This document shows positions 14,363-31,419 of a stretch of DNA of 32,000 bases, piece by piece. Origin of the DNA: Candidatus Saccharimonadota bacterium (GTDB lineage: Bacteria; Pseudomonadota; Alphaproteobacteria; CAJXXZ01; 1604HC); NCBI RefSeq assembly GCF_008189525.1, contig NZ_CP043314.1, forward strand, positions 570,001 through 602,000, read 5' to 3'. The notes below the pieces were generated by a model. The model was not told the DNA's origin. It saw only the letters and a program-made list of their open reading frames with translations, and ran no database searches. How positions within the stretch are numbered: position 1 is the stretch's first letter; each line of letters opens with the position of its first letter. Both the position numbers and the translations under genes were made by a program.

Positions 14363-14980
14363 GTGATGAGCCTATCTATAGAAGAAATCGTTTCCAGAAT
14401 AAAAAACTCAAAAGATGGTAACAAGAGATCACAAGATGATAAATCTAATCAAAAACCTACATACCTAAATCCATTGGAAAGTGACATAGAGTCTCAAACA
14501 CATGATGAGGAAAAAAGAACTGAACAAGAGTATAGCTTAGAACTTAAAACAGAAAGCTTAAATGATAAAAGCATCAATCCAAGCTTACAAAGCTCTGTAG
14601 AAAAATTAAGAGAGATTATGGGCGATTCTAATCATAGAAAAAGCATATATGTAACTAAAGAAGAAAAAATCAGCTTAGATAGCGATATAATCAAATCCTT
14701 AGTAAAACCTTTGGTACAAAAATGGACTGAAGAAAATATGGACAAAATAGGTAAATATATTAGCTATTCATTAAATGAAAATGTAGTAAAAGATCATCAT
14801 GTTATGGATTTTCTACAGAAAAACATAGATATTGTGCAGTCAATAATAAAAGAATCTATAGAGTCTTACATAGAATCCTACAGGCATTATGTAGAATCTA
14901 AAACAGAAACTATGGTTAAGAATTATGTAGAAGAATGTGTCAAAAAAGAATTATCTTCTATTCTAAAAGAAAGTTCTTAA
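14363..14980 (+). CDS. PopZ-like / DUF2497-like acidic protein (tentative)
   Basis: GTG/ATG start. The N-terminus SIEEIVSRIKN resembles the PopZ N-terminal TMEEILASIRRII. An acidic, low-complexity middle follows. The later block LDSDIIKSLVKPLVQKWTEENMDKI resembles the PopZ C-terminal LEDVVRELLRPLLKEWLDQNLPRI. This is from memory of Caulobacter PopZ and is not a search result. Confidence 0.45.
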   Translation: MMSLSIEEIVSRIKNSKDGNKRSQDDKSNQKPTYLNPLESDIESQTHDEEKRTEQEYSLELKTESLNDKSINPSLQSSVEKLREIMGDSNHRKSIYVTKEEKISLDSDIIKSLVKPLVQKWTEENMDKIGKYISYSLNENVVKDHHVMDFLQKNIDIVQSIIKESIESYIESYRHYVESKTETMVKNYVEECVKKELSSILKESS

Positions 14981-15114
14981 AAATATTTTAAGCTATCAGA
15001 ACTCAAACCCATTTAATTAAGCAATTTTTTTATTAAAAAAGAGCAAGATATAACATTCATAACGAAAATTACAAATAAACAAAAAATAATATAGAATTAG
15101 AGAAGGCAAAATAA

Positions 15115-18100
15115 ATGAATTATTCTAAATCAGTAACGAACATGGAGAAAAATTTCTTCTCCAAAGCAGATCCTTTTCAAAAATCATCAAAATATGAATC
15201 CAAATCTCGAATGGTTTTACCTCCACCAAACATTACCGGAAAACTACATATAGGACATGCACTAAATGCTTTTGTTCAAGATTTAAAAGTTAGATATGAA
15301 AGGTCATTTAACAACAATAAAATATCCTGGATCCCTGGAACTGATCACGCAGGAATTGCAACACAAATAATGGTAGAAAAATTATTACTAGAATCAAATA
15401 TTAAAAAAGAAGATTTGGGCAGAGAAAAGTTCCTAGAAAAAGTTTGGGAATGGAAAGAAAAGTATCAAGATAATATATATGATCAATTAAAGAAACTTGG
15501 TTTGGAGCTAGATTGGGATCAAGCTAAATTCACTATGGATGAAGATGTACAGGAGGCTGTATCGGAAGCTTTTTGTAAGTTTTATAAATCAGGATTGATA
15601 TTCAAAGATAATAGAATTGTACATTGGGATACAAAGATGCAAACTGCCATTTCAGACCTAGAGGTAAGAAATGAAGAAGTCACTGGCTATATGTATTATA
15701 TAAAATATTATTTTGAAAACTCTTTATCAGAAGATTCACCAAAGAATACTACAGAAGAGCCTATTTCTGAAAACTTCGTAACAGTTGCCACTACAAGACC
15801 AGAGACTATGTTCGGAGATAAAGCAATAGCCGTAAATCCTAACGATGAAAGGTATAAAAACCTTATAGGAAGATCTGCATATATTCCAATGACAGATATC
15901 AAAATTCCTATAATTTCAGATGAAAGATGTGATATGGAAAAAGGATCTGGAGCTGTAAAAATAACTCCTGCACACGATTTCCTAGATTTCGAAATAGGAA
16001 AAGACCATGACCTAGAGGTACAAAATATTATAGATAAGTACGGAAAATTATCAGGAGATTCAGTACCAAAATCATTACAAAATATAGATAGATTAGAAGC
16101 TAGAAAAAAAATAATAAAAGAATTAAAAGACAAAGAATTATTAGTAAAAGAAGAAAAGATAAAACATATCATTCCTCACGGAGATAGATCTGGATCTATA
16201 TTAGAACCTATGGCTACTAAGCAGTGGTTCTTAGATATGGACAGCATGGCTTCTGAAGCAAAAGAAGATATACAAAATATTGCAGTATTTCCGCAGAATT
16301 ATATTAAGATATTTAACCATTGGATGAACAACATACAGCCCTGGTGCATATCCAGACAAATATGGTGGGGACATCAAATACCTGTGTGGTATTTTGATGA
16401 TAATCATATATATGATTTAGAGAAATATAATAGTTACAAAAAACATGGAACAAATTATTTAACATCCGATTATGGGCAAATAAATAAAGACAATGAACAA
16501 TTTAGTAAAAATGCAAACTTGAATCATGAATTTTTGAATCAGGTGAATTTTGAAAAGAGATTTATAGTTGCTAAAGACATAGAGTCAGCTAGAAAAATAG
16601 CTAAAGACATAGGCATAAAGAATGATTCTCTAACACAGGAAACTGATGTCTTGGATACTTGGTTTTCTTCTGCCTTGTGGCCTTTAGTAAACTCTAAAGA
16701 AATAAATAGCATATTTACAAACTCACTAAACCAGGAACTAAATCAGAAATCAACTCAGGAACTAAGCAAGGGCTTAGATCCAAAAAATGAAGAATATCCA
16801 AATGAATGCATAATAACTGGAAGCGATATATTATTCTTCTGGGTTGCTAGAATGATTATGTTTTGTAAATTCTTTTCTAAAAAAATTCCTTTCAAGCAAA
16901 TATATTTACATGGACTAGTTCAAGATAGCTTTGGGAAGAAAATGTCTAAATCTAAAAACAATGCAATGGATCCTTTAGATATAATTGCAGAAGAAGGAAT
17001 TGATGTATTGAGATACGCCCTGCTATCCTCTTCTGTTCCTGGTAAAAATGTAAAATTCGGGAAACAAAACATAGAAAAATCTAGACATTTCTGTATAAAA
17101 ATATGGAATGTATTTAAATTTATAAAATCAAACTGTTCAGAGCTATTTGATGTAAATATACACACTCCAGAAAACATGGAAGATAATCTAAAATCAGGAG
17201 AATCAAGCCAAACACATGACTCACAAGAAATAAAAAAACAAAACATACCTCAAGAAGAAAGTAGTTATAACTTGCCTGAAAATCTTCATCCATGGAACTC
17301 TTTTATAGTATTAAAAATCTCTGATATAAGGAAAACAATACTTGATTTTATAAGTGAATGGAAAATACATGAAGCATCAAACGAAATATATAAACTAATA
17401 TGGGAAGATTTTTGCAGCCTATACATAGAAGGATGTAAGAGTATGCTTAACTCAGAACATTCTATGGAGACAAAGATTGTAATAACAGAATCTTTTAAAG
17501 AGTTAATAAGAATACTGAATCCATTTATGCCTGTTCTAAGTACAGAGATATTCTCTCTTATGGAAAATATAAACCCACAAACTAAAGCATATAATTCTAA
17601 CCTGACCAACAAACCATGTAATACATCATGCAGCTTTGATTCTATTCTTGATTCAATATTAAAAAAGAAATCTCAAAAAGAAAACCAAGAAAACGAAACA
17701 TTGATAAAGTCTAAAACATTGGATTATATAAAAGAAATTACAGAAATTACAGATTCAATAAGATACTGCAAAGGTGTATTGGGAATAGAGAACTCAATTA
17801 TATATCATGTAAACATAAAGCAGGATCATGTAGGAGAAAATATTATACAGGGTTCCAAATCCCATTTAGAGTCAAATGTAGAAAAGGATGAAGTGTTTTA
17901 TAATATAATTGAAAAGTTGTCTGGGTTTAAAATCCATCCTTCAAAAGAACCTAAAAATGACATGACACCTTACCCGCTGCAACAGGGGGTTTTATACATA
18001 AATTTCTTAGATAAAGATCTAAACAAGTTAAAAAATAAAATAAAGAAAGAGAAAGAGAAATCTTATCAAGATCTTTCTGACGCAGAAAGGAAAATTGAGA

Positions 18101-18219
18101 ATAAGCAATTTATTGAAAATGCTCCTACTGAAATCAAAGAGGAAATCAAGGAAAGAATTGCAAAACTAAAGCAAATTGTAGATAATTTTGATAAAGTGGA
18201 ATTGATGTGGAGCAAGTAA
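15115..18219 (+). CDS. valS: Valine--tRNA ligase
   Basis: 1034-aa class I synthetase. It has LPPPNITGKLHIGHAL (HIGH), KMSKSKNN (KMSKS), an editing-domain TTRPETMFGD block, and the ValS-type C-terminal coiled coil with FIENAPTEIKEEIKERIAKL. There are several lineage-specific insertions. Confidence 0.95.
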   Translation: MNYSKSVTNMEKNFFSKADPFQKSSKYESKSRMVLPPPNITGKLHIGHALNAFVQDLKVRYERSFNNNKISWIPGTDHAGIATQIMVEKLLLESNIKKEDLGREKFLEKVWEWKEKYQDNIYDQLKKLGLELDWDQAKFTMDEDVQEAVSEAFCKFYKSGLIFKDNRIVHWDTKMQTAISDLEVRNEEVTGYMYYIKYYFENSLSEDSPKNTTEEPISENFVTVATTRPETMFGDKAIAVNPNDERYKNLIGRSAYIPMTDIKIPIISDERCDMEKGSGAVKITPAHDFLDFEIGKDHDLEVQNIIDKYGKLSGDSVPKSLQNIDRLEARKKIIKELKDKELLVKEEKIKHIIPHGDRSGSILEPMATKQWFLDMDSMASEAKEDIQNIAVFPQNYIKIFNHWMNNIQPWCISRQIWWGHQIPVWYFDDNHIYDLEKYNSYKKHGTNYLTSDYGQINKDNEQFSKNANLNHEFLNQVNFEKRFIVAKDIESARKIAKDIGIKNDSLTQETDVLDTWFSSALWPLVNSKEINSIFTNSLNQELNQKSTQELSKGLDPKNEEYPNECIITGSDILFFWVARMIMFCKFFSKKIPFKQIYLHGLVQDSFGKKMSKSKNNAMDPLDIIAEEGIDVLRYALLSSSVPGKNVKFGKQNIEKSRHFCIKIWNVFKFIKSNCSELFDVNIHTPENMEDNLKSGESSQTHDSQEIKKQNIPQEESSYNLPENLHPWNSFIVLKISDIRKTILDFISEWKIHEASNEIYKLIWEDFCSLYIEGCKSMLNSEHSMETKIVITESFKELIRILNPFMPVLSTEIFSLMENINPQTKAYNSNLTNKPCNTSCSFDSILDSILKKKSQKENQENETLIKSKTLDYIKEITEITDSIRYCKGVLGIENSIIYHVNIKQDHVGENIIQGSKSHLESNVEKDEVFYNIIEKLSGFKIHPSKEPKNDMTPYPLQQGVLYINFLDKDLNKLKNKIKKEKEKSYQDLSDAERKIENKQFIENAPTEIKEEIKERIAKLKQIVDNFDKVELMWSK

Positions 18220-18713
18220 TGATTTTCATAAAAAAAGCAACAAGTTTTATAAAAAATTTAACAAAGACAATAGTTAATAAGATAAATACGAAGAATTTAT
18301 TTTATAGCACAAACTCCAAACAAAACATATTCACAAAACTTCTACTAATATCTTCCCTTGTATTTATTCTTCAAGGATGTGAAGAAGAGAAACATATGAA
18401 CTGCCCAAAAGGCAAATTAATAGGAATGACAAAAACAGAATTTATCAGTAAATATGGAGAAGGTGCAATAAAGCATCCGCTAGATAACAACACATGGTTT
18501 TACGTAGATCTGATTTACATAAACAGTCTTTTTTCTAAGACTGCAAAAGGAAATTGGATGAGCGTAAGGATCAGCAATAACAAGATTGTAGAATTGAGAA
18601 AAGGCAAGCTTCCAAAGAAAATGAAAATGAAAGAACATAAAAAAGAAACATTAGTAAAGAAAAAGATTGCTGAAGAGCTGTTTGGATATGTTGGATCTGC
18701 ATCTTCATACTAA
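18207..18713 (+). CDS. bamE: BamE (SmpA/OmlA)-like outer-membrane lipoprotein
   Basis: The lipobox LVFILQGC is followed by [28 protein letters not shown], which matches E. coli BamE GMTQQQVAYALGTP....NTWFYV. The start is uncertain: the ATG at 18219 overlaps the valS stop in TAATG, and in either case the leader before the lipobox is unusually long. Confidence 0.5.
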
Positions 18714-19435: not shown

Positions 19436-19717
19436 ACATAAACATTGTGTATAAGGGTATATTTTGGTAAGTTCTTTGCAAGATCTCAGGAGGGATGATG
19501 ACAAGTAATTTGGATAAATTTACATCTGGAGCTAGTGCAAAACAGAGTGCTAACGCTAACGGAAGTACGAACAAGGCAAGCAAATCAAGCACTATGAGCA
19601 AAATGAGGAGCATACTGAAGCTATGCACACTTGCACTTACAGCCCAACACACAAACACGGTTGACATCCCGAAACTACACGACATCCCTAACGAACATGG
19701 TTGTTTTTATCATTTGA
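19436..19717 (+). repeat. Outer inverted repeat, left arm (5' leader, SD, 33-codon leader and constant LRR head)
   Basis: Hand alignment with the reverse complement of 31004-31283. The region from ~55 nt upstream of the ATG through codon ~32 is essentially identical (1 indel and 2 mismatches, all upstream). The head region has about 10 further mismatches, mostly synonymous. Confidence 0.9.
19488..19493 (+). promoter_or_regulatory. Shine-Dalgarno AGGAGG for LRR paralog 1 (within the outer inverted-repeat arm)
   Basis: AGGAGG lies 1 nt and 4 nt upstream of the tandem ATGs at 19495 and 19498. The same sequence is mirrored at 31227-31232. Confidence 0.6.
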
Positions 19718-21510
19718 AATATACAAAAAATGGAACTTTGGATTTATATGAAAGCGGATTGCCAAAATATGAAAGTGGATTGGTAGATCTGTTAGATGGA
19801 ATGGTAGAAATGCATAAATTCAGCAAATCTGACATAGAATTTGTTGCGTTTCTAAGACATGAAATAGAAAAAATCCTTGAAGTTGATTACAATAAGGGAC
19901 TAGAAAATGACTTCTTACTTAAATTTCCAAAAATAAAGGGCATAATAGGAGATGGTGAGCTTGAAGAAGAAGTTTTAGCTGAACATGGATACTCAAAAGA
20001 AGATTATGACAGTACTATTACTGGGTATAATGTTAGAGATTCTTTGGATTGTTTGATTCGTGCCAAGAGAATTTGGGGCAAAATGATTGACCAATATGGG
20101 GAAGAAGATCTTAACAAAATCAAAGATTCAGTAAAAAATGCAAACCATGAATACGAATTAGGGAAAAAAACTCACCTAAACTTAAAAGTTATGCATAATT
20201 TGGTAGGATATGGATTAAGGCAAAGAGAAGCAGCTGGTATGCCAGATGAATCTACATTTTTGCAAAGATGGTACTCTGGAAGACATGCTTATGCAGACGA
20301 TAAAAAGTCTAAAGTATCTATAAAACTAGATAATAGTGCGTTTATTTATCAAGTAATTCCTACTAAAGATTCAGGCACAGACTATGAGAAGAAACCTTGC
20401 GAACGTCATTCGAATATTATGTCTGTTTCATATTTCGATGCAAATACAAAAACAGACAATTTAGTTTGGGCTGGAGATGAAAGAGAATTAAAAGAGAGAA
20501 CCTGCAAAGTTGTTCAATACAACAGCTTCCCAGATTTAAGAAACTTGGATAGAATCGGTCCAATTTTCCAATATGCACTGGCATTGAGATATGTTCATTT
20601 AGATATCACAAGCCCTGATCATTTGTATTGGATGAGATTTGCGCAAGACTTGGAATATGTGAAATTGAGAGTTACAGAATCAGACCACCTAAAGCACTTG
20701 GGTTTGTTGAAAAACACACAATACTTAGGTATTACTAACATAAACGTAGATGATGCAATCATTCTTCCTGAAGAAATCGGCACATTAAGCAAATTAAGGT
20801 GCTTACACTTGAGTGGAGTTGAAGGATATCCAAACCAGATTCATGGAATTAAAGGATTACGTGAAATTAAGTTCGTGGAATCCGAAGGTAAGATAGATAA
20901 AAGCTTAAGTGATTTAGATAAATTGGTACATTTGGAGTTAAGTGGTAAGGTAGAATTGCCTGAAACTATAGAATTATGGGGGCTAGAATCTCTTGTTGCA
21001 CCTAGCGCAGATATAGAAAAAATGCCTAGATTTATCTGCCCTGAATTAAGGTATTTAGATTTAGGAAGTGCAAGATTAGACCATGCTTTAGAGCCTGGAG
21101 CAAAATTACCTATATTTGCAGGTGGTAATGAAATGACCAAAGCAGTAGATTTATCTGAATGCCCTGAGCTACGTGAAGTTTGGGTTGGAAACAGAATCAA
21201 CGAAGTTGACGTGTCTGTGTTTAAGAGTTGCAAAAAGTTGATGTATATTGGACTTGGAGTTGATTTTAAGTACAGTATTAAATCAGGTTTGACTGAGTAT
21301 GTTAAGAAAAATGAGCTATTCTTCGAGTTACTACATCCACTTAATGCAGGTGAAAAATTGCAATACAACTGTAAGATTCCAGGAGAAGATGGTGAGTGGC
21401 TGAAGTTAAAGAGATACCAAGAAAACCAAAAGAGAAATTGGGTAAGAAATAAAAATGCTAGATATAAGCATATGGCAAAAATCTTGAAAGAAAATGGTCA
21501 GCTAAAATAG
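19495..21510 (+). CDS. Leucine-rich-repeat protein, paralog 1 (candidate secreted/injected effector)
   Basis: 671 aa. A 33-aa S/T/N/A/K-rich leader is followed by the constant head MSKMRSILKLCTLALTAQHTNTVDIPKLHDIPNEHGCFYHLKY and a ~260-aa region I do not recognise. About 9-10 irregular LRRs follow (e.g. LPEEIGTLSKLRCLHLSG, LSDLDKLVHLELSG, CPELRYLDLGS, CPELREVWVGN), and the protein ends in a basic tail KRYQENQKRNWVRNKNARYKHMAKILKENGQLK. Confidence 0.75.
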   Translation: MMTSNLDKFTSGASAKQSANANGSTNKASKSSTMSKMRSILKLCTLALTAQHTNTVDIPKLHDIPNEHGCFYHLKYTKNGTLDLYESGLPKYESGLVDLLDGMVEMHKFSKSDIEFVAFLRHEIEKILEVDYNKGLENDFLLKFPKIKGIIGDGELEEEVLAEHGYSKEDYDSTITGYNVRDSLDCLIRAKRIWGKMIDQYGEEDLNKIKDSVKNANHEYELGKKTHLNLKVMHNLVGYGLRQREAAGMPDESTFLQRWYSGRHAYADDKKSKVSIKLDNSAFIYQVIPTKDSGTDYEKKPCERHSNIMSVSYFDANTKTDNLVWAGDERELKERTCKVVQYNSFPDLRNLDRIGPIFQYALALRYVHLDITSPDHLYWMRFAQDLEYVKLRVTESDHLKHLGLLKNTQYLGITNINVDDAIILPEEIGTLSKLRCLHLSGVEGYPNQIHGIKGLREIKFVESEGKIDKSLSDLDKLVHLELSGKVELPETIELWGLESLVAPSADIEKMPRFICPELRYLDLGSARLDHALEPGAKLPIFAGGNEMTKAVDLSECPELREVWVGNRINEVDVSVFKSCKKLMYIGLGVDFKYSIKSGLTEYVKKNELFFELLHPLNAGEKLQYNCKIPGEDGEWLKLKRYQENQKRNWVRNKNARYKHMAKILKENGQLK

Positions 21511-23454
21511 ATGGAGGCAAAAAATATGATTACAAACAAATATAAAATGGGTAATATGAGCAAAATGAGGAACATACTGAAGCTATGCACACTTGCACTT
21601 ACAGCCCAACACACAAACACGGTTGACATCCCTAAACTACACGACACCCCTAACGAACATGGTTGTTTTTATCATTTTAAGTACGTTGAAGGAACTTTTA
21701 GCATAGAAAAGAATGAAACTTTTGAACTTTTAGAGCAAATGTATGAACAAAGTAAATACAGCATAGAGGATATTAAATTAATCGCATTTCTAAGACATGA
21801 ACTAGAGAAGATACTTGAAATTGATTATAAAAAAGGATTGGAAAATGATTTCTTGCTAAAGTTTCCAAAAATAGAAGAAGTTATGGGAGATGGAGAATGG
21901 GAAGAGGAGGTTTTCCTAGGTCATGGATATTCAAAAGAAGAGTATAGACAAACTGATATAGTCTGTAACGTCAGAGATGCTATTTCTTATATGGAATATA
22001 CAAAAAGAATCTGGGGCAAAATTATAAAACAAGAAGATGAGGAAACTGCTAAAGAAATAAAAGATTCAGTAAAAAATACAAATCATGAATGCGAGCTAGG
22101 TCAGAAAACCTATCTAAACTTAGGAGCTATGCTTAATTCCATAGGATATGGATTGAGACAGAGAAAAGAAGCTAGAATGCCAGGTGAATCTACATTTTTG
22201 CAAAGGTGGTATTCTGGAAGACATGCTTATGAAGATGACAAAAAATCTAAAGTATCTATAAAGTTGGATAATAGCAAATTTATCTATCAGGGCATACCCA
22301 CTAAAGATTCAGGAACTGACTATGAGAAAAAACCTATAGAATATAATAATTCTACAGATTTGATGTATTTATCCTATTTCGATGCAAACACAAAAACAGA
22401 TAATCTGGTATGGTGTGGAGATGAAAGAGAACTTAAGGAAAGAACCTGCAAAGTTGTTCAATACAATAGCTTTCCAGATTTGAGAAACTTGGATAGGATA
22501 GGTCCAATTTTCCAATATGCACTGGCTTTAAGGTATGTTCATTTGGATATAACAAGCCCTGATCATTTGTATTGGATGAGATTCGCACAAGATTTGGAAT
22601 ATGTGAAATTGCGTGTAAAAGAATCAGATCATCTAACACATTTAGGTTTGTTGAAAAATACACAATACCTTGGAATTACCAACATAAACGTAGACGAAGC
22701 GATCGTTCTTCCTGAAGAAATCGGCACATTAAGCAAATTAAGGTGCTTACACTTGAGTGGAGTTGAAGGATATCCGAACCAGATTCATGGAATAAAAGGA
22801 TTACGTGAAATTAAGTTCGTGGAATCTGAAGGTAAAATTGATAAAAGTTTGAGCAACCTAGATAAACTTGTTCATTTAGAGCTAAGTGGAAAAGTAGAAT
22901 TGCCTGAAACCATAGAACTATGGGAACTACAATCTCTAGTTGCACCTAGTGCAGACATAGAAAAGATGCCTAAGTTTATTTGCCCTGAATTAAGATATTT
23001 GGATCTAGGAAGTGCAAGATTAGAGCATGCTTTAGAACCTGGAGCAAAATTGCCTATATTTGCAGGTGGTAATGAAATAACAAGCGTATCTGACTTATCT
23101 GAATGTCCAGAATTAAGAGAAGTTTGGGTTGGAAACAGAATCAACGAAGTTGATGTTGAAGTGTTTAAGAATTGCAAGAAGTTGATGTACATAGGATTAG
23201 GAGTTGATTTTAAATATAATATCAAGCAAGGATTAACTGAGTATGTTAAGAAAAATGAGCTATTCTTAGAGTTACTACATCCACTTAATGCAGGAGAAAA
23301 ACTTCAATACAGCTGTAAGATTCCAGGTGAAGATGGTGAATGGTTGAAATTGAAGAGATACCAAGAAAATCAAAAAAGAAATTGGGTAAGAAATAAAAAT
23401 GCTAGATATAAGCATATGGCAAAAATCTTGAAAGAAAATGGTCAGCTAAAATAG
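21511..23454 (+). CDS. Leucine-rich-repeat protein, paralog 2
   Basis: 647 aa with the same architecture as paralog 1, and most positions are identical by eye. It has a short leader, MEAKNMITNKYKMGN, before the constant head. The likely start is 21526. Confidence 0.75.
   Translation: MEAKNMITNKYKMGNMSKMRNILKLCTLALTAQHTNTVDIPKLHDTPNEHGCFYHFKYVEGTFSIEKNETFELLEQMYEQSKYSIEDIKLIAFLRHELEKILEIDYKKGLENDFLLKFPKIEEVMGDGEWEEEVFLGHGYSKEEYRQTDIVCNVRDAISYMEYTKRIWGKIIKQEDEETAKEIKDSVKNTNHECELGQKTYLNLGAMLNSIGYGLRQRKEARMPGESTFLQRWYSGRHAYEDDKKSKVSIKLDNSKFIYQGIPTKDSGTDYEKKPIEYNNSTDLMYLSYFDANTKTDNLVWCGDERELKERTCKVVQYNSFPDLRNLDRIGPIFQYALALRYVHLDITSPDHLYWMRFAQDLEYVKLRVKESDHLTHLGLLKNTQYLGITNINVDEAIVLPEEIGTLSKLRCLHLSGVEGYPNQIHGIKGLREIKFVESEGKIDKSLSNLDKLVHLELSGKVELPETIELWELQSLVAPSADIEKMPKFICPELRYLDLGSARLEHALEPGAKLPIFAGGNEITSVSDLSECPELREVWVGNRINEVDVEVFKNCKKLMYIGLGVDFKYNIKQGLTEYVKKNELFLELLHPLNAGEKLQYSCKIPGEDGEWLKLKRYQENQKRNWVRNKNARYKHMAKILKENGQLK
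21513..21517 (+). promoter_or_regulatory. Shine-Dalgarno GGAGG suggesting the true start of LRR paralog 2 is the ATG at 21526
   Basis: In the sequence ATGGAGGCAAAAAATATG, GGAGG sits 8 nt upstream of the in-frame ATG at 21526. The ATG at 21511 directly abuts the upstream TAG. Confidence 0.5.
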
Positions 23455-25377
23455 ATGGAGGCAAAAAATATGATTACAAACAAATATAAAATGGGTAATA
23501 TGAGCAAAATGAGGAACATACTGAAATTGTGTACGCTTGCACTTACAGCCCAACACACAAACACGGTTGACATCCCGAAACTACATGACACCCCTAACGA
23601 ACATGGCTGTTTTTATCATTTTAAGTACGTTGAAGGAACATTGAATCTGGAACAGAATGAAACCTACGAACTTTTGGAAGGAATGTATGAGCAAAGCAAA
23701 TACAGCTCAGAAGATATAAAATTGATTGCCTTCTTAAGACACGAACTAGAAAAGATTCTTGAAGTTGATTATAAAAAGGGGTTAGAAAATGACTTCTTGC
23801 TCAAGTTTCCTAAAATAGAGGAAGTTATGGGAGACGGAGAATGGGAAGAAGAAGTTCTACTAGGTCATGGATACTCAAAAGAAGATTACAGACAAACTGT
23901 TATTACCTGTAATGTTAGAGATTCTTTTGATTGCTTGATTCGCTCAAAAAGGATCTGGGGCAAGATGATTGACCAATATGGAGAAGAGGATCTAAACAAA
24001 ATAAAAGATTCAATAAAAAATGCAAACCATGAGCATGAATTTGGAAAGAAAACTCATCTTAATTTAAAAGTTATGCATAATTTGGTAGGATATGGATTAA
24101 GACAAAGAGAAGCAGCTAAAATGCCAGATGAATCTACATTTTTGCAAAGATGGTACTCTGGAAGACATGCTTATGAAGATGACAAAAAATCTAAAGTATC
24201 TATAAAGTTAGATAACAGTGCATTTATTTATCAAGGCATCCCTACTAAAGATTCAGAAACTGATTATGAAAATAAACCTTGCGAACGTGATTCAAATATT
24301 ATGTATGTATCATATTTCGATGCAAATACAAAAACAGACAATTTAGTTTGGGCTGGAGATGAAAGAGAATTAAAAGAGAGAACCTGCAAAGTTGTTCAAT
24401 ACAATAGTTTCCCCGATTTAAGAAACTTGGACAGAATCGGTCCTATTTTCCAATATGCATTGGCTTTAAGGTATGTACATTTGGATATCACTAGCCCTGA
24501 TCATTTGTACTGGATGAGATTTGCACAAGACTTAGAGTATGTGAAATTGAGAGTTACAGAATCAGACCACCTAAAGCACTTGGGTTTGTTAAAAAACACA
24601 CAATACCTTGGAATTACCAACATAAACGTAGATGATGCAATCGTTCTTCCTGAAGAAATTGGTAGTTTAAGCAAATTAAGATGCTTACATTTAAGCGGAG
24701 TTGAAGGATATCCAAACCAGATCCATGGCATTAAGGGATTACGCGAAATTAAATTCGTAGAATCTGAAGGTAAGATAGACAAAAGCTTAAGTAATCTGGA
24801 CAAGCTTGTTCACTTAGAACTAAGCGGTAAAGTAGAGTTGCCTGAAACCATAGAATTATGGGAACTACAATCTCTAGTTGCACCTAGTGCAGACATAGAG
24901 AAAATGCCCCAATTTATCTGCCCTGAATTAAGATACTTAGATCTAGGAAGTGCAAGATTAGAGCATGCTTTAGAACCTGGAGCAAAATTGCCTATATTTG
25001 CAGGTGGTAATGAAATTACTAGCGTATCTGACTTGTCCGAATGTCCTGAGCTACGTGAAGTTTGGGTTGGAAACAGAATCAACGAAGTTGACGTGTCTGT
25101 ATTTAAGAGTTGTAAGAAGTTGATGTATATTGGACTTGGAGTTGATTTTAAGTACAGTATTAAATCAGGTTTGACTGAGTATGTTAAGAAAAATGAGCTA
25201 TTCTTCGAGTTACTACATCCACTTAATGCAGGTGAGAAATTGCAATACAACTGCAAGATTCCAGGAGAAGATGGTGAGTGGTTGAAATTAAAGAGATACC
25301 AAGAAAACCAAAAGAGAAGCTGGATGAGAAAAGAACACCCAAGGTACAAACGCATGGAAAAGATCTTTAAGGTTTAA
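23455..25377 (+). CDS. Leucine-rich-repeat protein, paralog 3 (mosaic of paralogs 1 and 2)
   Basis: 640 aa. The N-terminal ~160 aa follow paralog 2 and the middle follows paralog 1. ELWELQS...RLEH...NEITSVSDLSE follows paralog 2, and VSVFKSCKK...YSIKSGL...LFFELL...QYNCK follows paralog 1. Its basic tail is distinct: KRSWMRKEHPRYKRMEKIFKV. Confidence 0.75.
   Translation: MEAKNMITNKYKMGNMSKMRNILKLCTLALTAQHTNTVDIPKLHDTPNEHGCFYHFKYVEGTLNLEQNETYELLEGMYEQSKYSSEDIKLIAFLRHELEKILEVDYKKGLENDFLLKFPKIEEVMGDGEWEEEVLLGHGYSKEDYRQTVITCNVRDSFDCLIRSKRIWGKMIDQYGEEDLNKIKDSIKNANHEHEFGKKTHLNLKVMHNLVGYGLRQREAAKMPDESTFLQRWYSGRHAYEDDKKSKVSIKLDNSAFIYQGIPTKDSETDYENKPCERDSNIMYVSYFDANTKTDNLVWAGDERELKERTCKVVQYNSFPDLRNLDRIGPIFQYALALRYVHLDITSPDHLYWMRFAQDLEYVKLRVTESDHLKHLGLLKNTQYLGITNINVDDAIVLPEEIGSLSKLRCLHLSGVEGYPNQIHGIKGLREIKFVESEGKIDKSLSNLDKLVHLELSGKVELPETIELWELQSLVAPSADIEKMPQFICPELRYLDLGSARLEHALEPGAKLPIFAGGNEITSVSDLSECPELREVWVGNRINEVDVSVFKSCKKLMYIGLGVDFKYSIKSGLTEYVKKNELFFELLHPLNAGEKLQYNCKIPGEDGEWLKLKRYQENQKRSWMRKEHPRYKRMEKIFKV
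23457..23461 (+). promoter_or_regulatory. Shine-Dalgarno GGAGG suggesting the true start of LRR paralog 3 is the ATG at 23470
   Basis: This is the same junction sequence as at 21511-21528, repeated exactly 1944 nt downstream. Confidence 0.5.
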
Positions 25378-25381
25378 TTCA

Positions 25382-26131
25382 GTGGGAGCAAGAGGAGATC
25401 GTTCTACTAAGGAAAAAAAAGAAAAAGCAAAGGAAGTAGAACAGCAGCAAGAAACCATAATTGATGAAGAACCCGTCGATCCAGATATAGGAAGTATATG
25501 TCAGATATACGATGAGAAGTGGGGCGAGACGGTAAGGAACGTAAATGCAGGTACGTATCAGAAACTGATGACGCTTACAAATTTCGGTACAATTGAAGAA
25601 CTAGAAATAGAGGAAGAGCTGTCTGAGCCTTACACTATAAAAGGTAAGTGTTTCTTTTGGGAAGAGATATATGGCGACGTAGTTGGCATGGAACCGAAGG
25701 TCACATTAGCAACAGAAGGTAAAACAAGATATTGGCACGGAGTTATAACTGAGTGGATCGAAGGTGGAACTGATCTTAAGGACGAAAGATATTACTACGA
25801 ATTCGAGATGCGACCAAAATTATGGTATAGGATGCAAAGCAGGCAAAACAAGATACATGTGTCGGATAAGGGCATGCGTGTTAAGGAACTGGCAAGCAAA
25901 CTAATCGAAGATGCGATGCAGAATAATAAAAATACGAAAGTAAAGTTTGAGCAAAAGTACGATGTTAATTTCGCAAAAGTGAAATCAGCTCAAAATAATC
26001 CAAATGAACCATTGATAGAATATGCTGTGCAATATGAAGAAACTACTTACGGTTTCTTCCAAAGATTACTAAGCAATCATGGTATATTTTATTATTATAA
26101 AGTCGAAGACAATTATTCCTGCCTAAGCTAA
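25382..26131 (+). CDS. VgrG N-terminal (gp27-like) head fragment, intact 249-codon ORF with GTG start
   Basis: From DPDIGSICQIYDEKWG to HGIFYYYK it is collinear with residues ~28-235 of the full VgrG at 26841-29414, with 2 amino-acid differences. It then ends with a unique tail, VEDNYSCLS. It starts 4 nt after the LRR3 stop. Whether it is a pseudogene is discussed in the findings. Confidence 0.7.
   Translation: MGARGDRSTKEKKEKAKEVEQQQETIIDEEPVDPDIGSICQIYDEKWGETVRNVNAGTYQKLMTLTNFGTIEELEIEEELSEPYTIKGKCFFWEEIYGDVVGMEPKVTLATEGKTRYWHGVITEWIEGGTDLKDERYYYEFEMRPKLWYRMQSRQNKIHVSDKGMRVKELASKLIEDAMQNNKNTKVKFEQKYDVNFAKVKSAQNNPNEPLIEYAVQYEETTYGFFQRLLSNHGIFYYYKVEDNYSCLS
25477..26101 (+). repeat. Inner inverted repeat, left arm (vgrG head)
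   Basis: 625 nt collinear with the reverse complement of 28710-29334, with 31 mismatches and no indels by my block-by-block hand alignment. Confidence 0.9.
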
Positions 26132-26262
26132 ATTCCACTTATTTAAAAAATCTGATTACTAGAGCTTACAATTAAAAAGATTGATAAGTGATAAAACTAC
26201 AAAAACATAAACATACAAAATCAGAATTATCAACAAAATATTTCAACTGTAGTAAGAAAATA

Positions 26263-26841
26263 CTAACCCATCTCTACGCCAGATTCAAAATAAGTTTTCT
26301 TGATTATTTTTCCTTCTGGATCATATACAGTCCATTGCCCATCTTTTAAATCTTCAAGATACATTCCAGACTCCATGATAGAACCTGTTTTCGGATAAAA
26401 AGTCACAGAAAAACCATTCAATTTATTTTTCTGGAAAATTTCTTGTTTTAACAATTCTCCTTTTTCGAAAACCAAAAACAGCCCGCTTTTCTCTCCATTT
26501 TTGTAATTACCCTTATTAGATATTCCATTTGCATCAAATACGTACACAGGTCCGTGCATCAAATCATCTTTATAATTTGTAATCATTAATAAATTCCCAG
26601 ATTCATATATTTCCATAGGCCCATTCATCTTATTACCAGAATAATTTGTGCGTCTCGTTATGACACTTTTCTCATAAAGAGTCTCTTCGCCTTCTTTTTC
26701 TCCAGCTTTGGAATAGTATCTCTGTACCAGATTTCCTTCTTTATCCCTTATTTCATTATAATCTAAATCACTTTGATCTGATTCTTTGACTGCTCCACAA
26801 GGCTTATAAAAATCGACTATTTGTTCTTTTGTTATATTCAT
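26263..26841 (-). CDS. MORN-repeat-variant (YwqK-like) protein
   Basis: 192 aa made of about six ~23-aa units with the pattern G.......Y.nGk.dG....Y/F (e.g. NYSGNKMNGPMEIYE, NYKDDLMHGPVYVFD, NYKNGEKSGLFLVFE, YLEDLKDGQWTVYD). Its ATG overlaps the vgrG stop (TAATG at 26839-26843 on the minus strand). Confidence 0.7.
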   Translation of the reverse strand: MNITKEQIVDFYKPCGAVKESDQSDLDYNEIRDKEGNLVQRYYSKAGEKEGEETLYEKSVITRRTNYSGNKMNGPMEIYESGNLLMITNYKDDLMHGPVYVFDANGISNKGNYKNGEKSGLFLVFEKGELLKQEIFQKNKLNGFSVTFYPKTGSIMESGMYLEDLKDGQWTVYDPEGKIIKKTYFESGVEMG

Positions 26842-29414
26842 TAGTTTATTTTTACCATTGAACCCTTTATATTAGCAATTGTGTCTGCCTTTAAATCCAA
26901 TTTAGCTCCTTTTATAGACACTCCCGCTTTTCCTTCTATTGAAACTTGTCCCGAAGATTTCAAGCTTATATTAGCATTCGAAGAAATTTCTACAGATTTG
27001 CTAGATTCCATATTAATTCCATCTGCAGAAATTTTTATAGCACCTCCACTTATAGATATTGTATAATCACCAGACTTTATACTAATTGACTTGTTCCCTT
27101 TTATATCAGATTTAAAGTCCCCACTTGATAATGAAATTGATAAATCACCTTTTTCTAATGTTGTACTCAAATTTCCTGAAGCCAATTTCATATCCAAATT
27201 ACCTTTTTCTATTTCGTTAGAAATATTTCCTTCTGTGATTTTCTCTATCAAATCACCTTTGGAGATTTCTATTTTATGATGTGATTTCTCATCTCCCTTG
27301 GATAATAGAGAAATTTCCTTGCTCCCTTTTTCTAGTGTTATTTTATAATCACCCTGCTTTTCATCATCTTCAGCTAGAGTGCTTATTTCTATATTTCCAT
27401 TATTTACCTGCGTATCAATATCCCCTTGTTTTACAAGCAAAATTTTGTCATTTTCTATTTCTGTAAGTAAATCTTTCTGTGCATGGATATAAATTTGCTC
27501 TTCTTCAGCTTTATCAGATATAGTAATTTCATTGAATCCAAAATCTTCTTTTTCATCATCAATTGTTTTGGTTCTCAATCCAGTTTTATGAGAATCATCT
27601 GGCAAATCATATGGATTAGAATTTATGCTATTAAATACCGTACCTATAACAATAGGGTTGTCTGGATTTCCATTTTCATAAGTAACTATTACTTCTTGTC
27701 CAACTCTAGGTATGTAAGAGCCTCCAAATCCAGCGCCTGATCCTCCCCATTGTGCGACTCTCACCCAGCAAGATCTTTCAGAATAAGAAAGCGTATCATC
27801 GTTGTCCCAGTTGAATTTTATTTTCACTCTACCTAAGTCATCAGTGTTGATTTCTGCATTATCAGGCCCTACCACAATAGCAGATTGATATCCTAATATT
27901 TGTCTTTTTACTTTAGGAAGCACTTTAAAAACTGTATTCTCTTTCAGGAAAATAGATTCATTTACATAAGAATATTCAAACCCACTTACTTGACCAGCTT
28001 TGCTTTTTATATTTTGTTGTTTGTACAAAGGGTCAGTTAACGACTCTTCTGCCATTTCTGGGTTTTTCAAAAACAGTTTATGCTTAGTTTTTCTAGCATA
28101 GTATTTATTATCTATGACTTCTTTTACCTGATCAGGAAGATCTCTTTTTGATGCTGCTTTAACATCTGATTTAATTTTTTTTATTTTACTTTTCTTTTCA
28201 GTTTTGTAAACTTTTGTATGTTGATATAAATCTAGGGCAGATTTTAGCTCAAACAAATATCCAGGGCTAATCAAAAAATTACTTGTCACAGACTTATATT
28301 GAGTTTTTACAGACTCTGATGAGTCAGTAATATGCTTTGCATGGTCCTCTGCAGCATCTGGGTCAGTTAATGTTTCGAAGTATTCATTATTTTCAAAGCC
28401 TTCTTCAGCATTTCCCTCATGCTTTTTCTCTTCAACTTTTCCAAGTTTATCGAATTCTACCTCGATACCTGCTTTTTCGTAATTTCGACCTCTTGCCTTT
28501 TGTTTTCCTATCGCATATCTGTTTACTTTTCCCCATGTATCCACAAAAGGGCTGTTTATTTCATCTGATCCCTGTTTAGATAAGAACAAGTTGTCATAAT
28601 TAGCTTCGACCTTGTCATTATCACCTATTTCAATCTTACGTATGCCTGTAATAGGTTCCATTTTGGAAGTGTTATCCTTGAATATGATTTTACTTCCATC
28701 TTTCGCATGTTTATAGTAATAAAATATACCATGATTGCTCAGTAACCTTTGAAAAAACTCATATGTAGTTTCTTCATATTGAACTGCATATTCTATTAAC
28801 GGTCCGTTTGGATTATTTTGAGCTGATTTCACTTTTGCGAAATTAACATCGTACTTTTGCTCAAATTTTACTTTCGTATTCTTGTTATTCTGCATCGCAT
28901 CTTCGATTAGTTTGCTTGCCAGCTCCTTAACACGCATGCCCTTATCCGACACATGTATCTTGTTTTGCCTGCTTTGCATCCTATACCATAATTTTGGTCG
29001 CATCTCGAATTCGTAGTAATATCTTTCATCCTTAAGATCAGTTCCACCTTCGATCCACTCAGTTATAACTCCGTGCCAATATCTTGTTTTACCTTCTGTT
29101 GCCAATGTGACCTTCGGCTCCATACCAACTACGTCGCCATATATCTCTTCCCAAAAGAAACACTTACCTTTTATAGTATAAGGTTCCGATAATTCTTCCT
29201 CTATCTCGAGTTCTTCAATTGTACCGAAATTTGTAAGCGTCATCAGTTTCTGATACGTACCTGCATTTACGTTCCTTACCGTCTCGCCCCACTTCTCATC
29301 GTATATCTGACATATACTTCCTATATCTGGATCGGTAGTTTGAGATTCAGCACTTTTCTGTGCAGAAACTTCACCGTCTTTAGTTTTCTTTTTCTCTTTA
29401 TTTTGTTTAATCAT
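26841..29414 (-). CDS. vgrG: VgrG spike protein (type VI secretion / contractile injection system)
   Basis: 857 aa. The gp27-like part contains YWHGVITEW, YYYEFEMRPKLWY and IEYAVQYEETTYEFFQRLLSNHGIFYYYKH (compare canonical REYCVQYxESDxxFxxRLLEEEGIxYxFEH). The gp5 OB-fold part contains CWVRVAQWGGSGAGFGGSYIPRVGQEVIVTYENGNPDNPIVIGTVFN. The C-terminal ~200 aa form an 8-residue-periodic beta-helix (KGDLSISLSSGDFKSDIKGNKSISIKSGDYTISISGG) ending in GSMVKIN. There is no toxin extension. Confidence 0.9.
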   Translation of the reverse strand: MIKQNKEKKKTKDGEVSAQKSAESQTTDPDIGSICQIYDEKWGETVRNVNAGTYQKLMTLTNFGTIEELEIEEELSEPYTIKGKCFFWEEIYGDVVGMEPKVTLATEGKTRYWHGVITEWIEGGTDLKDERYYYEFEMRPKLWYRMQSRQNKIHVSDKGMRVKELASKLIEDAMQNNKNTKVKFEQKYDVNFAKVKSAQNNPNGPLIEYAVQYEETTYEFFQRLLSNHGIFYYYKHAKDGSKIIFKDNTSKMEPITGIRKIEIGDNDKVEANYDNLFLSKQGSDEINSPFVDTWGKVNRYAIGKQKARGRNYEKAGIEVEFDKLGKVEEKKHEGNAEEGFENNEYFETLTDPDAAEDHAKHITDSSESVKTQYKSVTSNFLISPGYLFELKSALDLYQHTKVYKTEKKSKIKKIKSDVKAASKRDLPDQVKEVIDNKYYARKTKHKLFLKNPEMAEESLTDPLYKQQNIKSKAGQVSGFEYSYVNESIFLKENTVFKVLPKVKRQILGYQSAIVVGPDNAEINTDDLGRVKIKFNWDNDDTLSYSERSCWVRVAQWGGSGAGFGGSYIPRVGQEVIVTYENGNPDNPIVIGTVFNSINSNPYDLPDDSHKTGLRTKTIDDEKEDFGFNEITISDKAEEEQIYIHAQKDLLTEIENDKILLVKQGDIDTQVNNGNIEISTLAEDDEKQGDYKITLEKGSKEISLLSKGDEKSHHKIEISKGDLIEKITEGNISNEIEKGNLDMKLASGNLSTTLEKGDLSISLSSGDFKSDIKGNKSISIKSGDYTISISGGAIKISADGINMESSKSVEISSNANISLKSSGQVSIEGKAGVSIKGAKLDLKADTIANIKGSMVKIN
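28710..29334 (-). repeat. Inner inverted repeat, right arm (codons ~28-235 of full-length vgrG)
   Basis: Partner of 25477-26101. Confidence 0.9.
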
Positions 29415-29419
29415 GCTAT

Positions 29420-31225
29420 TTAAATAAAGTTATCCTTGTTTTTATTTAATTTAGATCTTTTGTTTTTCAACATATATTTATAGATCTGATCCCAGTTTCC
29501 ATTGTTTTTCATATCGTGTTCTGTCTCTGGCTGTTCAATCATAATATATATTTCCTGATTCTTAACCCAATCCATAACAGAATCTTTATCTACCTTATAT
29601 CCATAATCTATGCCTATAGATAGTAATTTAAGTTCAGTAAGTGATGGCAGAGGAATAATTTTCTTGATCCAGTTTCCTATAAATAGCCTTTGCAAGTTTT
29701 TAGGAAGTTTTGACTCTACATCTTCCATGCTTGTCAACAAATTACCAACTGATCTTTTTTCAGATCCACCAAGATGTCTTCTTTGTGTGCTTCCTAAATC
29801 TAACACTTCTAATCTAGAGCACCCAGAAAAATCAGGCATTTCTTTCAATCTTGCATTTGGGATCCTTAACACTTCCAATCTAGGTAGAGATATATCTGTT
29901 TTTAAATATGTATCTGCCATAAATGATGCCACAACCAAATTTGTTAAGCTGTTAAAATTTTCATCTAGCTCTGCAGGAACATGAGCATCTATTTCTTGTA
30001 GATTAGAGCACTTGCTAAATCCATTGCTATACTTTGTTTTTCTTGTTAGCTCTAAATGTCTTAGGTTTTGTAACCCAGATACAGAATTTGGAATCAATGC
30101 AAATCCATCTCCACTTCCATCTACATTAACGGATAATGATCCTAAGTTTTCCATATCTCCCATTTCATATGGCAAATTTATATCTTCCTTTGAATTCAAA
30201 GTTAGTTTTAACTGCAGTTTTTCTAACCCAGGTATCCATTTTAGATTCCTTAAAACATCCAAATCTTCATTTTGCTTATATTCCAATCTAAGTCTTAAGT
30301 CGATTAAATTAGTTGCAAGTCTTATTAATGGGCCAATTTGTTGGTTACATCTAAAGATTTCTACAGAAAATAAATTCAGTTCATCTAATTCTTTAACTGT
30401 TTTTGGAGTTTCACTGTAATCTAATCCGTTATTTATGGATTTTATTCTATTAGTTGAAAACCATCTTGATATTGAATCTTTATCTACCCATTGTTCTACG
30501 TCATTTGTGGTGTTGTTCAAATATTCTATTTTACTATCCAATTCTTTTTTGCTTTTTACTTCTGGTCTAGACTTTTTGTCAACCATATCCTTTGCATCAA
30601 TATAATCATGATAATTAAAGTCATTAACTAAGCTATGCATATTAACTAGAAATGACATAGCAGTGTACAAGTTGTCTCTGGATAAATTTTTATGATAATC
30701 TTCCTCAGAGAATCCTTTTTCTTTTATTAAGCTTAGAACCAGGTTGTAATCTTCTTGATCTTCAGCTGACTCTGCTATTGATTCTACTCTATGCATTTTT
30801 TTGTAATAATTATCTTTAGTCATAAAATCGGATTCTGTTTCTATTATAAATTCCAATTCCATTAAAAGATTTACAACAAAAAACTTCATTTCTGGATTTC
30901 TTCTTAAATCAGATGTATCAACATCATCTAAATCAAATTCTACATGATATGCATCCAAAACCTTTGCTGCTGTTCCATCCGGTTTTTGAGCATCTTTGTA
31001 CTTAAAATGATAAAAACAACCATGTTCGTTAGGGGTGTCGTGTAGTTTAGGGATGTCAACCGTGTTTGTGTGTTGGGCTGTAAGTGCAAGCGTACACAGT
31101 TTCAGTATGTTCCTCATTTTGCTCATGGTGCTTGATTTGCTTGCCTTGTTCGTACTTCCGTTAGCGTTAGCACTCTGTTTTGCACTAGCTCCAGATGTAA
31201 ATTTATCCAAATTACTTGTCATCAT
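29420..31225 (-). CDS. Leucine-rich-repeat protein, paralog 4 (divergent body, same leader and head as paralog 1)
   Basis: 601 aa. The first ~77 aa are near-identical to paralog 1 (MMTSNLDKFTSGASAKQSANANGSTNKASKSSTMSKMRNILKLCTLALTAQHTNTVDIPKLHDTPNEHGCFYHFKY). The rest is only distantly related. LRRs include LRNLKWIPGLEKLQLKL, MGDMENLGSLSVN, VSGLQNLRHLELT, LPRLEVLRIPNARLKEMPDFSGCSRLEVLDLGS. The tail is basic: LKNKRSKLNKNKDNFI. Confidence 0.75.
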   Translation of the reverse strand: MMTSNLDKFTSGASAKQSANANGSTNKASKSSTMSKMRNILKLCTLALTAQHTNTVDIPKLHDTPNEHGCFYHFKYKDAQKPDGTAAKVLDAYHVEFDLDDVDTSDLRRNPEMKFFVVNLLMELEFIIETESDFMTKDNYYKKMHRVESIAESAEDQEDYNLVLSLIKEKGFSEEDYHKNLSRDNLYTAMSFLVNMHSLVNDFNYHDYIDAKDMVDKKSRPEVKSKKELDSKIEYLNNTTNDVEQWVDKDSISRWFSTNRIKSINNGLDYSETPKTVKELDELNLFSVEIFRCNQQIGPLIRLATNLIDLRLRLEYKQNEDLDVLRNLKWIPGLEKLQLKLTLNSKEDINLPYEMGDMENLGSLSVNVDGSGDGFALIPNSVSGLQNLRHLELTRKTKYSNGFSKCSNLQEIDAHVPAELDENFNSLTNLVVASFMADTYLKTDISLPRLEVLRIPNARLKEMPDFSGCSRLEVLDLGSTQRRHLGGSEKRSVGNLLTSMEDVESKLPKNLQRLFIGNWIKKIIPLPSLTELKLLSIGIDYGYKVDKDSVMDWVKNQEIYIMIEQPETEHDMKNNGNWDQIYKYMLKNKRSKLNKNKDNFI

Positions 31226-31283
31226 CCCTCCTGAGATCTTGCAAAGAACTTACCAAAATATACTCTTATACGCAATGTTATGT
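31004..31283 (-). repeat. Outer inverted repeat, right arm
   Basis: Partner of 19436-19717; see that entry. Confidence 0.9.
31227..31232 (-). promoter_or_regulatory. Shine-Dalgarno AGGAGG for LRR paralog 4
   Basis: This is the reverse complement of CCTCCT, immediately upstream of the ATG ATG at 31225-31220, and is a mirror image of 19488-19493. Confidence 0.6.
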
Positions 31284-31347
31284 AAAAGAATGATGATTTG
31301 TAGATTAAAAATTACTTTAGATTATTTAGAGATTTGTTAGGAATGAG

Positions 31348-31419
31348 CTGAGGTACTAGGATTCGAACCTAGGAATGGCGGGATCAAAACCCGCTGCCTT
31401 ACCACTTGGCTATACCTCA
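31348..31419 (-). tRNA. tRNA-Gln (anticodon UUG)
   Basis: 72-nt cloverleaf read from the minus strand. It has acceptor TGAGGTA/TACCTCA, D arm GCCAAGTGGTAAGGC (as in E. coli tRNA-Gln), anticodon stem GCGGG/CCCGC with loop TTTTGAT (anticodon TTG), variable loop CATTC, T arm CTAGG-TTCGAAT-CCTAG and discriminator G. CCA is not encoded. Confidence 0.9.

Follow-up and report, generated by a model that had tools for sequence, protein, structure and literature searches.

A constrained 5' fragment of vgrG opposite the only full-length gene in Candidatus Nesciobacter abundans, and the possibility of a recombinational flip-flop

The window analysed here is a stretch of 32,000 nucleotides (positions 570,001 to 602,000 of contig NZ_CP043314.1) from the 616-kb genome of a Holosporaceae endosymbiont of Diplonema japonicum. 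It holds one full-length vgrG gene, together with a putative MORN_2/YwqK-family gene, bracketed by two nested pairs of inverted repeats and, on the opposite strand, a truncated copy of the front end of the same gene, referred to below as the head open reading frame (ORF) or stump. Each of the two vgrG heads is preceded by genes for leucine-rich repeat (LRR) proteins, LRR1 to LRR3 in the case of the stump and LRR4 in the case of the complete gene. The two results on which this study turns are that the orphan head has been under purifying selection as strong as that on the working gene, and that the inverted copies have exchanged sequence repeatedly. It is suggested here, tentatively, that the locus is a flip-flop cassette in which homologous recombination keeps both vgrG heads working.

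The inner pair of repeats, 625 nt long, 95% identical and differing at 31 positions, matches the stump to the full gene over 208 codons, and both arms lie in the same codon phase. Twenty-eight of the 31 mismatches are synonymous and only two codons alter the amino acid. By the Nei-Gojobori method Sd = 28.5 and Nd = 2.5, giving a synonymous divergence (dS) of 0.29, a non-synonymous divergence (dN) of 0.005 and a dN/dS of 0.017. Were the stump neutral and only the full gene constrained, about 68% of the differences would be expected to be non-synonymous, against about 8% observed (P about 1e-12). Gene conversion acting alone to clean a neutral stump was also considered and rejected, since conversion removes synonymous and non-synonymous differences alike and the steady state would still be about 68% non-synonymous. 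In the relative C. indipagum all of the differences between the arms are synonymous (8/8 over 196 codons, P = 1e-4), and in the structured part of a 98-codon stump from another relative (Cytomitobacter sp. L005), the ORF of which is open, there are 8 synonymous and 3 non-synonymous differences. An earlier note on this DNA, made from the letters alone, had named a static relic of an inverted segmental duplication as the alternative to a switch; in its simple form this relic or pseudogene view is contradicted by the low dN/dS, by the open ORF and by the intact stumps of C. indipagum and L005. The stump has glycine at a site that is aspartate or glutamate in all five VgrGs, and both non-synonymous codons fall within the body-proximal 100 nt of the arm. 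These departures would fit a flip-flop, because a crossover would seldom join this stretch of the stump arm to the body of the gene.

The distribution of the differences is as informative as their kind. Mismatches within the inner arms are clustered (index of dispersion, P = 0.0003), with identical runs of 126, 104, 74, 59 and 53 nt lying between short patches of very high synonymous divergence. Fifteen of the 31 mismatches are in the last 98 nt adjoining the gene body, the kind of excess that would arise if tracts of conversion or crossover seldom extended to the limit of the homology. Immediately beyond the inner arms identity falls to random, leaving no nucleotide similarity from which the duplication could be dated. 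A similar boundary is seen in the outer pair, where the leader and LRR N-terminus are 96% identical between LRR1 and LRR4 (dS 0.20 and dN/dS 0.08 over 76 codons) and the remaining protein is 26% identical and saturated; against LRR1-3 as a whole, the LRR4 body is 26-30% identical in amino acids and its first 76 codons are 96-97% identical at the nucleotide level. The 129-nt N-terminal module of LRR4 is itself a mosaic, in which the upstream part agrees with LRR1, alignment columns 63-73 with LRR3 and column 115 with LRR2. No single tree can accommodate all of these site patterns, and they require exchange by recombination of the right gene, which is inverted, with the left array. The patchy homogenisation of the arms and the mosaic LRR modules together show that the inverted copies do recombine, and have done so repeatedly.

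The coordinates of the locus are collected in Table 1. The LRR2 ORF begins immediately after the stop codon of LRR1, and all four LRR genes have a near-identical 43-codon N-terminal module (MSKMRNILKLCTLALTAQHTNTVDIPKLHDTPNEHGCFYHFKY), at about 19593-19721, 21555-21683, 23499-23627 and 30998-31126, which holds a short hydrophobic, signal-peptide-like stretch and is preceded in LRR1 and LRR4 by 33 extra codons. The module might be an export signal or might tag the proteins for loading onto VgrG. When the segment between the inner arms was inverted in silico, an in-frame VgrG of 862 residues was produced behind LRR3, with the TAATG overlap between the vgrG stop and the MORN start retained, and the reciprocal product was a 244-residue stump behind LRR4 that ends in VEDNYSCLS. 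The earlier note had anticipated both junctions. Its coordinates, ORFs, gaps and TAATG overlap were correct to within a few bases, its 625-nt inverted repeat was reproduced, and its statement that the locus has only one complete VgrG body also holds. No integrase or invertase domain was found in any window ORF of at least 90 amino acids. With no recombinase gene nearby, any flipping would depend on RecA. A site-specific invertase system of the inverton or shufflon kind was rejected on the same ground, and because such systems recombine at short sites, whereas the arms here consist of coding homology 625 and 281 nt long. RecA, RecFOR and MutSL are reported for this symbiont genome by George et al. 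(bioRxiv 10.1101/719211).

Table 1. Features of the vgrG locus in the window, followed by gene order at the four related loci (E, flanking gene; arrows give direction of reading)
Feature or locus	Position or gene order	Strand	Remarks
Outer inverted-repeat arm, left	19441-19721	+	281 nt, 96% identical to right arm; 54-nt leader with AGGAGG Shine-Dalgarno, LRR1 codons 1-76
LRR1	19495-21510	+	671 aa, QEK39300.1
LRR2	21511-23454	+	642 aa, QEK39301.1; annotated start 21526
LRR2 N-terminal module	21556-21684		129 nt, 97% inverted-identical to that of LRR4
LRR3	23455-25377	+	635 aa, QEK39302.1; annotated start 23470
LRR3 N-terminal module	23500-23628		129 nt, 97% inverted-identical to that of LRR4
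vgrG head ORF (stump)	25382-26131	+	249 aa, QEK39303.1; GTG start, 4 nt past LRR3 stop; unique 32-codon K/E-rich N-terminus, 208 shared codons, tail VEDNYSCLS
Inner inverted-repeat arm, left	25477-26101	+	head ORF codons 33-240
Inter-arm segment that an arm-to-arm crossover would invert	26102-28709		stump tail, 131-nt spacer, MORN gene, vgrG codons 236-857
MORN_2/YwqK-family gene	26263-26841	-	192 aa, QEK39304.1; start overlaps vgrG stop (TAATG)
Sole full-length vgrG	26841-29414	-	857 aa, QEK39305.1; ATG start 5 nt past LRR4 stop
Inner inverted-repeat arm, right	28710-29334	-	vgrG codons 28-235
LRR4	29420-31225	-	601 aa, QEK39306.1
Outer inverted-repeat arm, right	30999-31279	-	
tRNA-Gln(UUG)	31347-31419	-	immediately upstream of right leader
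C. indipagum (L006)	E431→ vgrG→ MORN→ ←201-aa stump ←E432		inner repeat 726 nt, 98%; outer repeat 190 nt, 93%
Cytomitobacter sp. (L005)	←E574 vgrG→ MORN→ 194aa→ ←98-aa stump E542→		head arms 86% identical
Cytomitobacter sp. (L004)	←E556 vgrG→ MORN→ E558→		flanking E genes form a 99% inverted repeat; no stump
Metagenome-assembled genome (L007)	←MORN ←E441 vgrG→		no inverted repeat

The full-length gene is a genuine VgrG/TssI spike gene. Its product scores over the cut-off for PF05954, PF04717 and PF22178, reaches 305.5 bits for TIGR03361 (cut-off 186.35) and matches solved VgrG structures at E = 2e-44. The 249-residue head covers only positions 2-148 of the 305 of the Phage_GPD profile, has no gp5 domain and scores 68 bits for TIGR03361, under the cut-off; the stump stops at VgrG residue 235, which corresponds to about residue 172 of the 645-residue solved VgrG 7q5p, in the middle of the gp27-like domain. 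By these matches the head ORF encodes a fragment of a VgrG and not a VgrG. LRR2, LRR3 and LRR4 score 29.8, 31.3 and 27.3 bits for LRR_4 (cut-off 27), and LRR1, with 22.2 bits, is under the cut-off yet 82-87% identical to LRR2 and LRR3. The MORN protein falls short of the PF07661 cut-off (25.7 bits against 29.6) and is named by NCBI a YwqK family antitoxin; orthologues are present in all four relatives.

Two independent assemblies of strain YPF1604 were compared, one from 2019 (616,088 bp) and a HiFi assembly from 2023 (616,058 bp). All eight locus proteins are identical between them, and the GenBank accessions QEK39299-QEK39306 are consecutive and match the window order from rpoZ through LRR4. 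Exact copies of the 857-residue VgrG and of the 249-residue head protein are encoded on OY490516.1 (GCA_960610765.1), the source of which is Candidatus Nesciobacter abundans (Wellcome Open Research genome note). The concordance of the two assemblies, and the occurrence of the same design in relatives, rule out an assembly artefact.

Relatives of the locus were found by an exhaustive profile search, which gave one clear relative (P0004, 36% identity), and by using P0004 in turn as the query, which gave three more; a word-indexed homologue search returned almost nothing with the Nesciobacter VgrG and, with the MORN protein of L004, only that protein itself, while a scan of genome contigs with the VgrG protein brought up a spurious Gardnerella match. 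C. indipagum has the same nested design as Nesciobacter. There (CP043315.1) the inner repeat, with arms at L006 9863-10588 and 13817-14542, spans the last 102 nt of the E gene, the spacer and vgrG codons 1-196, and the outer repeat consists of the leader and the E N-terminus, the E bodies being only 56% identical in amino acids. The C. indipagum E proteins have no BLAST similarity to the LRR proteins of Nesciobacter. The L005 arrangement is a decayed version of this design. The point of truncation varies across three species, coming after about 98 residues in one, 196 in another and 240 in the third, and is followed by short, unrelated tails. Within each genome the arms are 86-98% identical, and between species the VgrGs are 40-65% different, which suggests either concerted evolution or recurrent origin. 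As a background control, 80 generic metagenomic vgrG loci were taken (49 of them of at least 8 kb), their VgrGs being 24-47% identical and including no close relatives; an inverted repeat of at least 150 nt was found in 0/80, and a few had direct repeats.

Other observations on the related loci may be recorded here. In L004 the two signal-peptide genes that flank vgrG and MORN (8140-9810 on the minus strand and 13610-15286 on the plus strand) encode identical amino acids at residues 1-53 and 134-556 and completely unrelated ones at residues 54-133, a sharply bounded swapped cassette of about 230 nt within the 99% inverted repeat. Signal peptides of the Sec type are borne by the Cytomitobacter flanking proteins. 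In L007, the 558-kb genome CP060235.1, the MORN/YwqK orthologue (7946-8488, minus strand) comes after E441 (8593-9918, minus strand) and not downstream of vgrG, E441 is opposite in strand to vgrG, and the orientation of vgrG relative to RsmE and PriA is opposite to that in L004 and L005. In C. indipagum TssM and TssL are 8 kb from vgrG, and the tssL/tssM (DotU/IcmF) genes are separated from a ribosomal protein operon by a tandem array (L006:2282-3118) of 24 copies of a 34-nt unit, or 8.3 copies of 102 nt, 86-89% matching, which is unusual in a genome of 628 kb.

The arrangement could be accounted for as follows. An old inverted duplication of a 5' module, made up of a flanking gene and the vgrG front end, would have placed a copy on either side of a single vgrG body with its MORN/YwqK gene, and two patches of homology would have been kept alike by repeated homologous recombination of the RecA type. 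Crossovers in the inner arms would flip the segment between them, with the result that the VgrG body and MORN gene could be read sometimes from the LRR4 operon, as assembled, and sometimes from the LRR1-3 operon. In a genome that sheds junk the stump would stay intact because either head can be the working 5' end, so that selection sees both. Constraint at the level of the full gene over essentially all stump sites is what a flip-flop predicts, and is not predicted for half a domain. Long in-phase inverted arms of conserved 5' gene regions and a footprint of exchange between them, two of the marks of RecA-type inversion, were found at the locus. We hold this reading to be the likeliest of those considered, though we favour it only tentatively. 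A wider proposition, that the VgrG body and MORN gene form a mobile 3' cassette which RecA-dependent inversion reversibly reassigns between two diverging effector-like operons, with both heads selected and across genera, is a more doubtful one.

Several points weigh against the flip-flop. The earlier note had called for orientation to be compared across assemblies and relatives, and the comparison lends no support: a molecule in the inverted state is not on record, the two YPF1604 assemblies having identical proteins in the same order, and the orientation of vgrG relative to the valyl-tRNA synthetase gene is identical in Nesciobacter and L004. L007 is the sole relative that is rearranged, and the predicted inversion would not yield the gene order seen there; it was rejected as support, its neighbourhood having been rearranged by other events. 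The two arms differ by 5%, and a mutS gene lies in the window. Mismatch repair should depress recombination between diverged arms, so that flipping may be too rare for such strong selection unless each state is at times favoured. A dS of 0.29 implies that large parts of the arms have long gone without homogenisation, and gene conversion is possible without crossover. Whichever way the segment lay, both LRR sets would be transcribed, blurring any benefit of switching. The earlier note had also proposed that each state gives VgrG a different K/E-rich N-terminus of about 30 residues. The Nesciobacter head does have its own unique N-terminus of 32 codons, but the C. indipagum arms include the start codon, so that flipping there would leave the VgrG protein unchanged and a different N-terminus cannot be the general point of the system. 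That switching changes the cargo is pure inference.

The regulation of the two operons and the available transcripts also bear on these questions. It had been claimed that an essentially identical 5' leader would give both operons identical regulation, and this does not hold, as the leader common to both is only 54 nt upstream of the ATG. The best -35 element on the right (TTTACA, 31286-31281) falls for the most part beyond the shared arm, and nothing on the left corresponds to it; farther upstream the neighbours differ, rpoZ on the left and tRNA-Gln on the right. A promoter scan did not rise above chance (50 found, 57 expected) and no terminators were found. The host transcriptome (EukProt EP01064, TRINITY_DN1348_c0_g1, isoforms i1 and i2) includes symbiont vgrG transcripts, vgrG RNA thus being present in the host RNA-seq data. 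P0003 and P0155, which derive from these Trinity contigs, have an odd C-terminal tail that is vgrG 28530-28450 in another frame, the 3' end of the transcript looping about 250 nt back into the gene (window 28281-28530, minus strand). The two were rejected as evidence of an alternative junction. The contigs are chimeric through an assembly loop, so that transcription of vgrG is all they prove; the start of P0155, exactly at the first ATG of the left-head frame, gives a hint that the left 5' context is transcribed.

Three other explanations have to be set beside the flip-flop. The arrangement might be static, with a non-functional stump and no inversion, the mostly synonymous differences having been inherited from functional alleles: either a second complete vgrG paralogue was recently truncated by a deletion of the sort common in genome reduction, or patches of the working gene were replaced by DNA from a diverged strain. 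Gene transfer agents could have brought in such patches, and genes for them are reported for these endosymbionts in PMC9254644. The single orientation of both assemblies is in keeping with a static locus, imported tracts would also give patchy differences, the stump has its glycine where all five VgrGs are acidic, and L005 and L004 resemble stages of decay and loss. A static origin would, however, need an independent recent truncation or import in at least two genera, each leaving an open ORF that can be started, and none of the five genomes retains any vestige of another vgrG body or another MORN gene. The arms end sharply on both sides without residual similarity beyond, highly diverged patches down to 31 nt are more easily seen as unconverted remnants than as imports, and the mosaic LRR modules reveal exchange within the locus. 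On balance we regard a static stump as unlikely. Distinctly less probable still is that the head ORF makes a truncated VgrG-like protein with a role of its own, such as that of an adaptor, plug or regulator, together with LRR1-3, with selection acting on this protein and the inverted repeat being a by-product of the origin of the gene. Its intact ORF, which starts 4 nt past the LRR3 stop behind a weak Shine-Dalgarno site, its dN/dS, the intact stump ORFs in three species and the start of P0155 would all suit such a protein. Nevertheless, the product stops midway through the gp27-like domain, the truncation point is not conserved and the tails are unrelated, and the 98-residue version, mostly disordered N-terminus, cannot have the same fold-dependent function as the longer ones. 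Constraint like that of the full-length gene at every site would be unexpected for half a domain, and the Trinity contigs are demonstrably chimeric.

It might also be that the locus is an adaptive, phase-variable cargo switch of the kind put forward in the earlier note, with frequent inversion and coexisting states, each of which loads or co-expresses VgrG with a different LRR set. All of the recombination evidence for a flip-flop applies equally here, such strong selection on the stump is easier to understand if each state is periodically favoured, and more than one genus has kept the nested design, its flanking genes evolving fast (dN/dS 0.37-0.72). Against this, the LRR operons would retain their own leaders in both states, so that all LRR proteins should be made, and the leader they share is so short; the C. 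indipagum VgrG would be identical in both states; Sec-type signal peptides such as those on the Cytomitobacter flanking proteins are unusual for cargo of a type VI secretion system (T6SS); and two assemblies show one state. We consider such a switch improbable, and a flip-flop that is tolerated, being neutral like that of plastid inverted repeats, or weakly selected is more likely than a selected switch of effector context.

The remainder of the window gives some context. Its G+C content is about 30% and it also carries dnaA (1350-2714, minus strand), mutS, valS and rpoZ; none of the core T6SS genes (tssA-M, hcp, clpV) lies within it. The sign of the GC skew changes at about 12.5 kb, where genes diverge, and at about 26.1 kb, where the LRR-vgrG modules converge, and across the whole window the skew tracks the coding strand. 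A 628-residue protein encoded at 9781-11667 (minus strand) has TPR-like repeats (PilW/LapB-type matches) as well as a secretin domain of GspD/PilQ type at its C-terminus, and is probably the outer-membrane part of the reduced type II secretion system/type IV pilus reported for these symbionts. Type II secretion E and F genes are also near the vgrG locus in L004, L005 and L007. Overlapping the end of valS is an ORF of 168 residues (18207-18713, plus strand) with no Pfam match; the Cytomitobacter loci likewise have ORFs without Pfam matches adjoining valS.

Endosymbiont genomes as small as 0.6 Mb are generally regarded as static and as shedding whatever is unused. Here a gene fragment of 750 nt is retained under selection of the strength seen on the working gene, with repeated exchange and with recurrence in a sister genus from different flanking genes. 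If the flip-flop were to prove true, this would be the first secretion-system spike shared between alternative operons by DNA inversion, and it would show phase variation by recombination in a symbiont of a protist that is obligately intracellular. A further gain would be a means of finding out which of the flanking proteins, LRR proteins here and those with signal peptides in Cytomitobacter, act with an unusual T6SS that lacks Hcp. If flipping is absent, the strongly constrained half-domain ORF would itself be an unexplained functional element. George et al. (bioRxiv 10.1101/719211; Current Biology 2020), in the passages that treat the locus, describe LRR proteins on both sides of VgrG in Nesciobacter and Cytomitobacter and a YwqK-family protein adjoining VgrG, and report that these symbionts have most T6SS core genes and lack Hcp and TssJ; those passages of the bioRxiv version make no reference to inverted repeats, to a truncated copy of vgrG or the constraint on it, or to a possible inversion. 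The earlier note knew of no T6SS module organised in this way. Our literature search agrees with it, having found no relevant paper that combines vgrG with DNA inversion, as does the lack of inverted repeats among the generic vgrG loci.

Orphan cassettes of T6SS vgrG and Rhs genes, such as the auxiliary clusters of Vibrio cholerae and the Rhs orphans of Salmonella, swap effector-immunity cassettes by homologous recombination at conserved vgrG or rhs segments. Like the present locus they have conserved spike or carrier pieces as recombination anchors beside variable effector-like genes, and partial copies beside the full gene, but they use direct repeats or exchange between genomes, which leads to replacement, deletion or duplication. 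In plastid genomes and in rRNA operon inversions, the flip-flop of large inverted repeats produces two isomers with the same gene content and concerted evolution of the copies. Homologous recombination between inverted copies, equal gene content and copies evolving in concert would be common to both; in those cases, however, the repeats hold whole genes and the isomers are equivalent, whereas here a crossover inside a gene would set which operon owns its body. Shufflons (R64 Rci), pilin and hsdS inversions and intragenic invertons (bioRxiv 10.1101/2023.03.11.532203; PMC11868660) resemble the locus in having a coding segment between inverted repeats, with parts recombined without loss of information. 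They differ from it in their short sites and in the dedicated tyrosine or serine recombinase encoded nearby, where the window has long coding arms and no recombinase.

The closest analogue in mechanism is probably the sap locus of Campylobacter fetus, for which Dworkin and Blaser, in the 1990s, reportedly described RecA-dependent nested DNA inversion between the conserved 5' regions of oppositely oriented sapA homologues. In both loci the arms are hundreds of nucleotides long and consist of conserved 5' coding regions, several pairs are nested, the products are in frame and there is no dedicated invertase. Inversion has reportedly been shown by experiment in Campylobacter fetus; at the vgrG locus it is a proposal. 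The two also differ in what is moved. In the sap locus a promoter segment moves among many complete gene bodies and the surface antigen is changed, whereas here a single body, that of vgrG with its MORN gene, would pass back and forth from one complete 5' context to the other, with little or no change in the protein.

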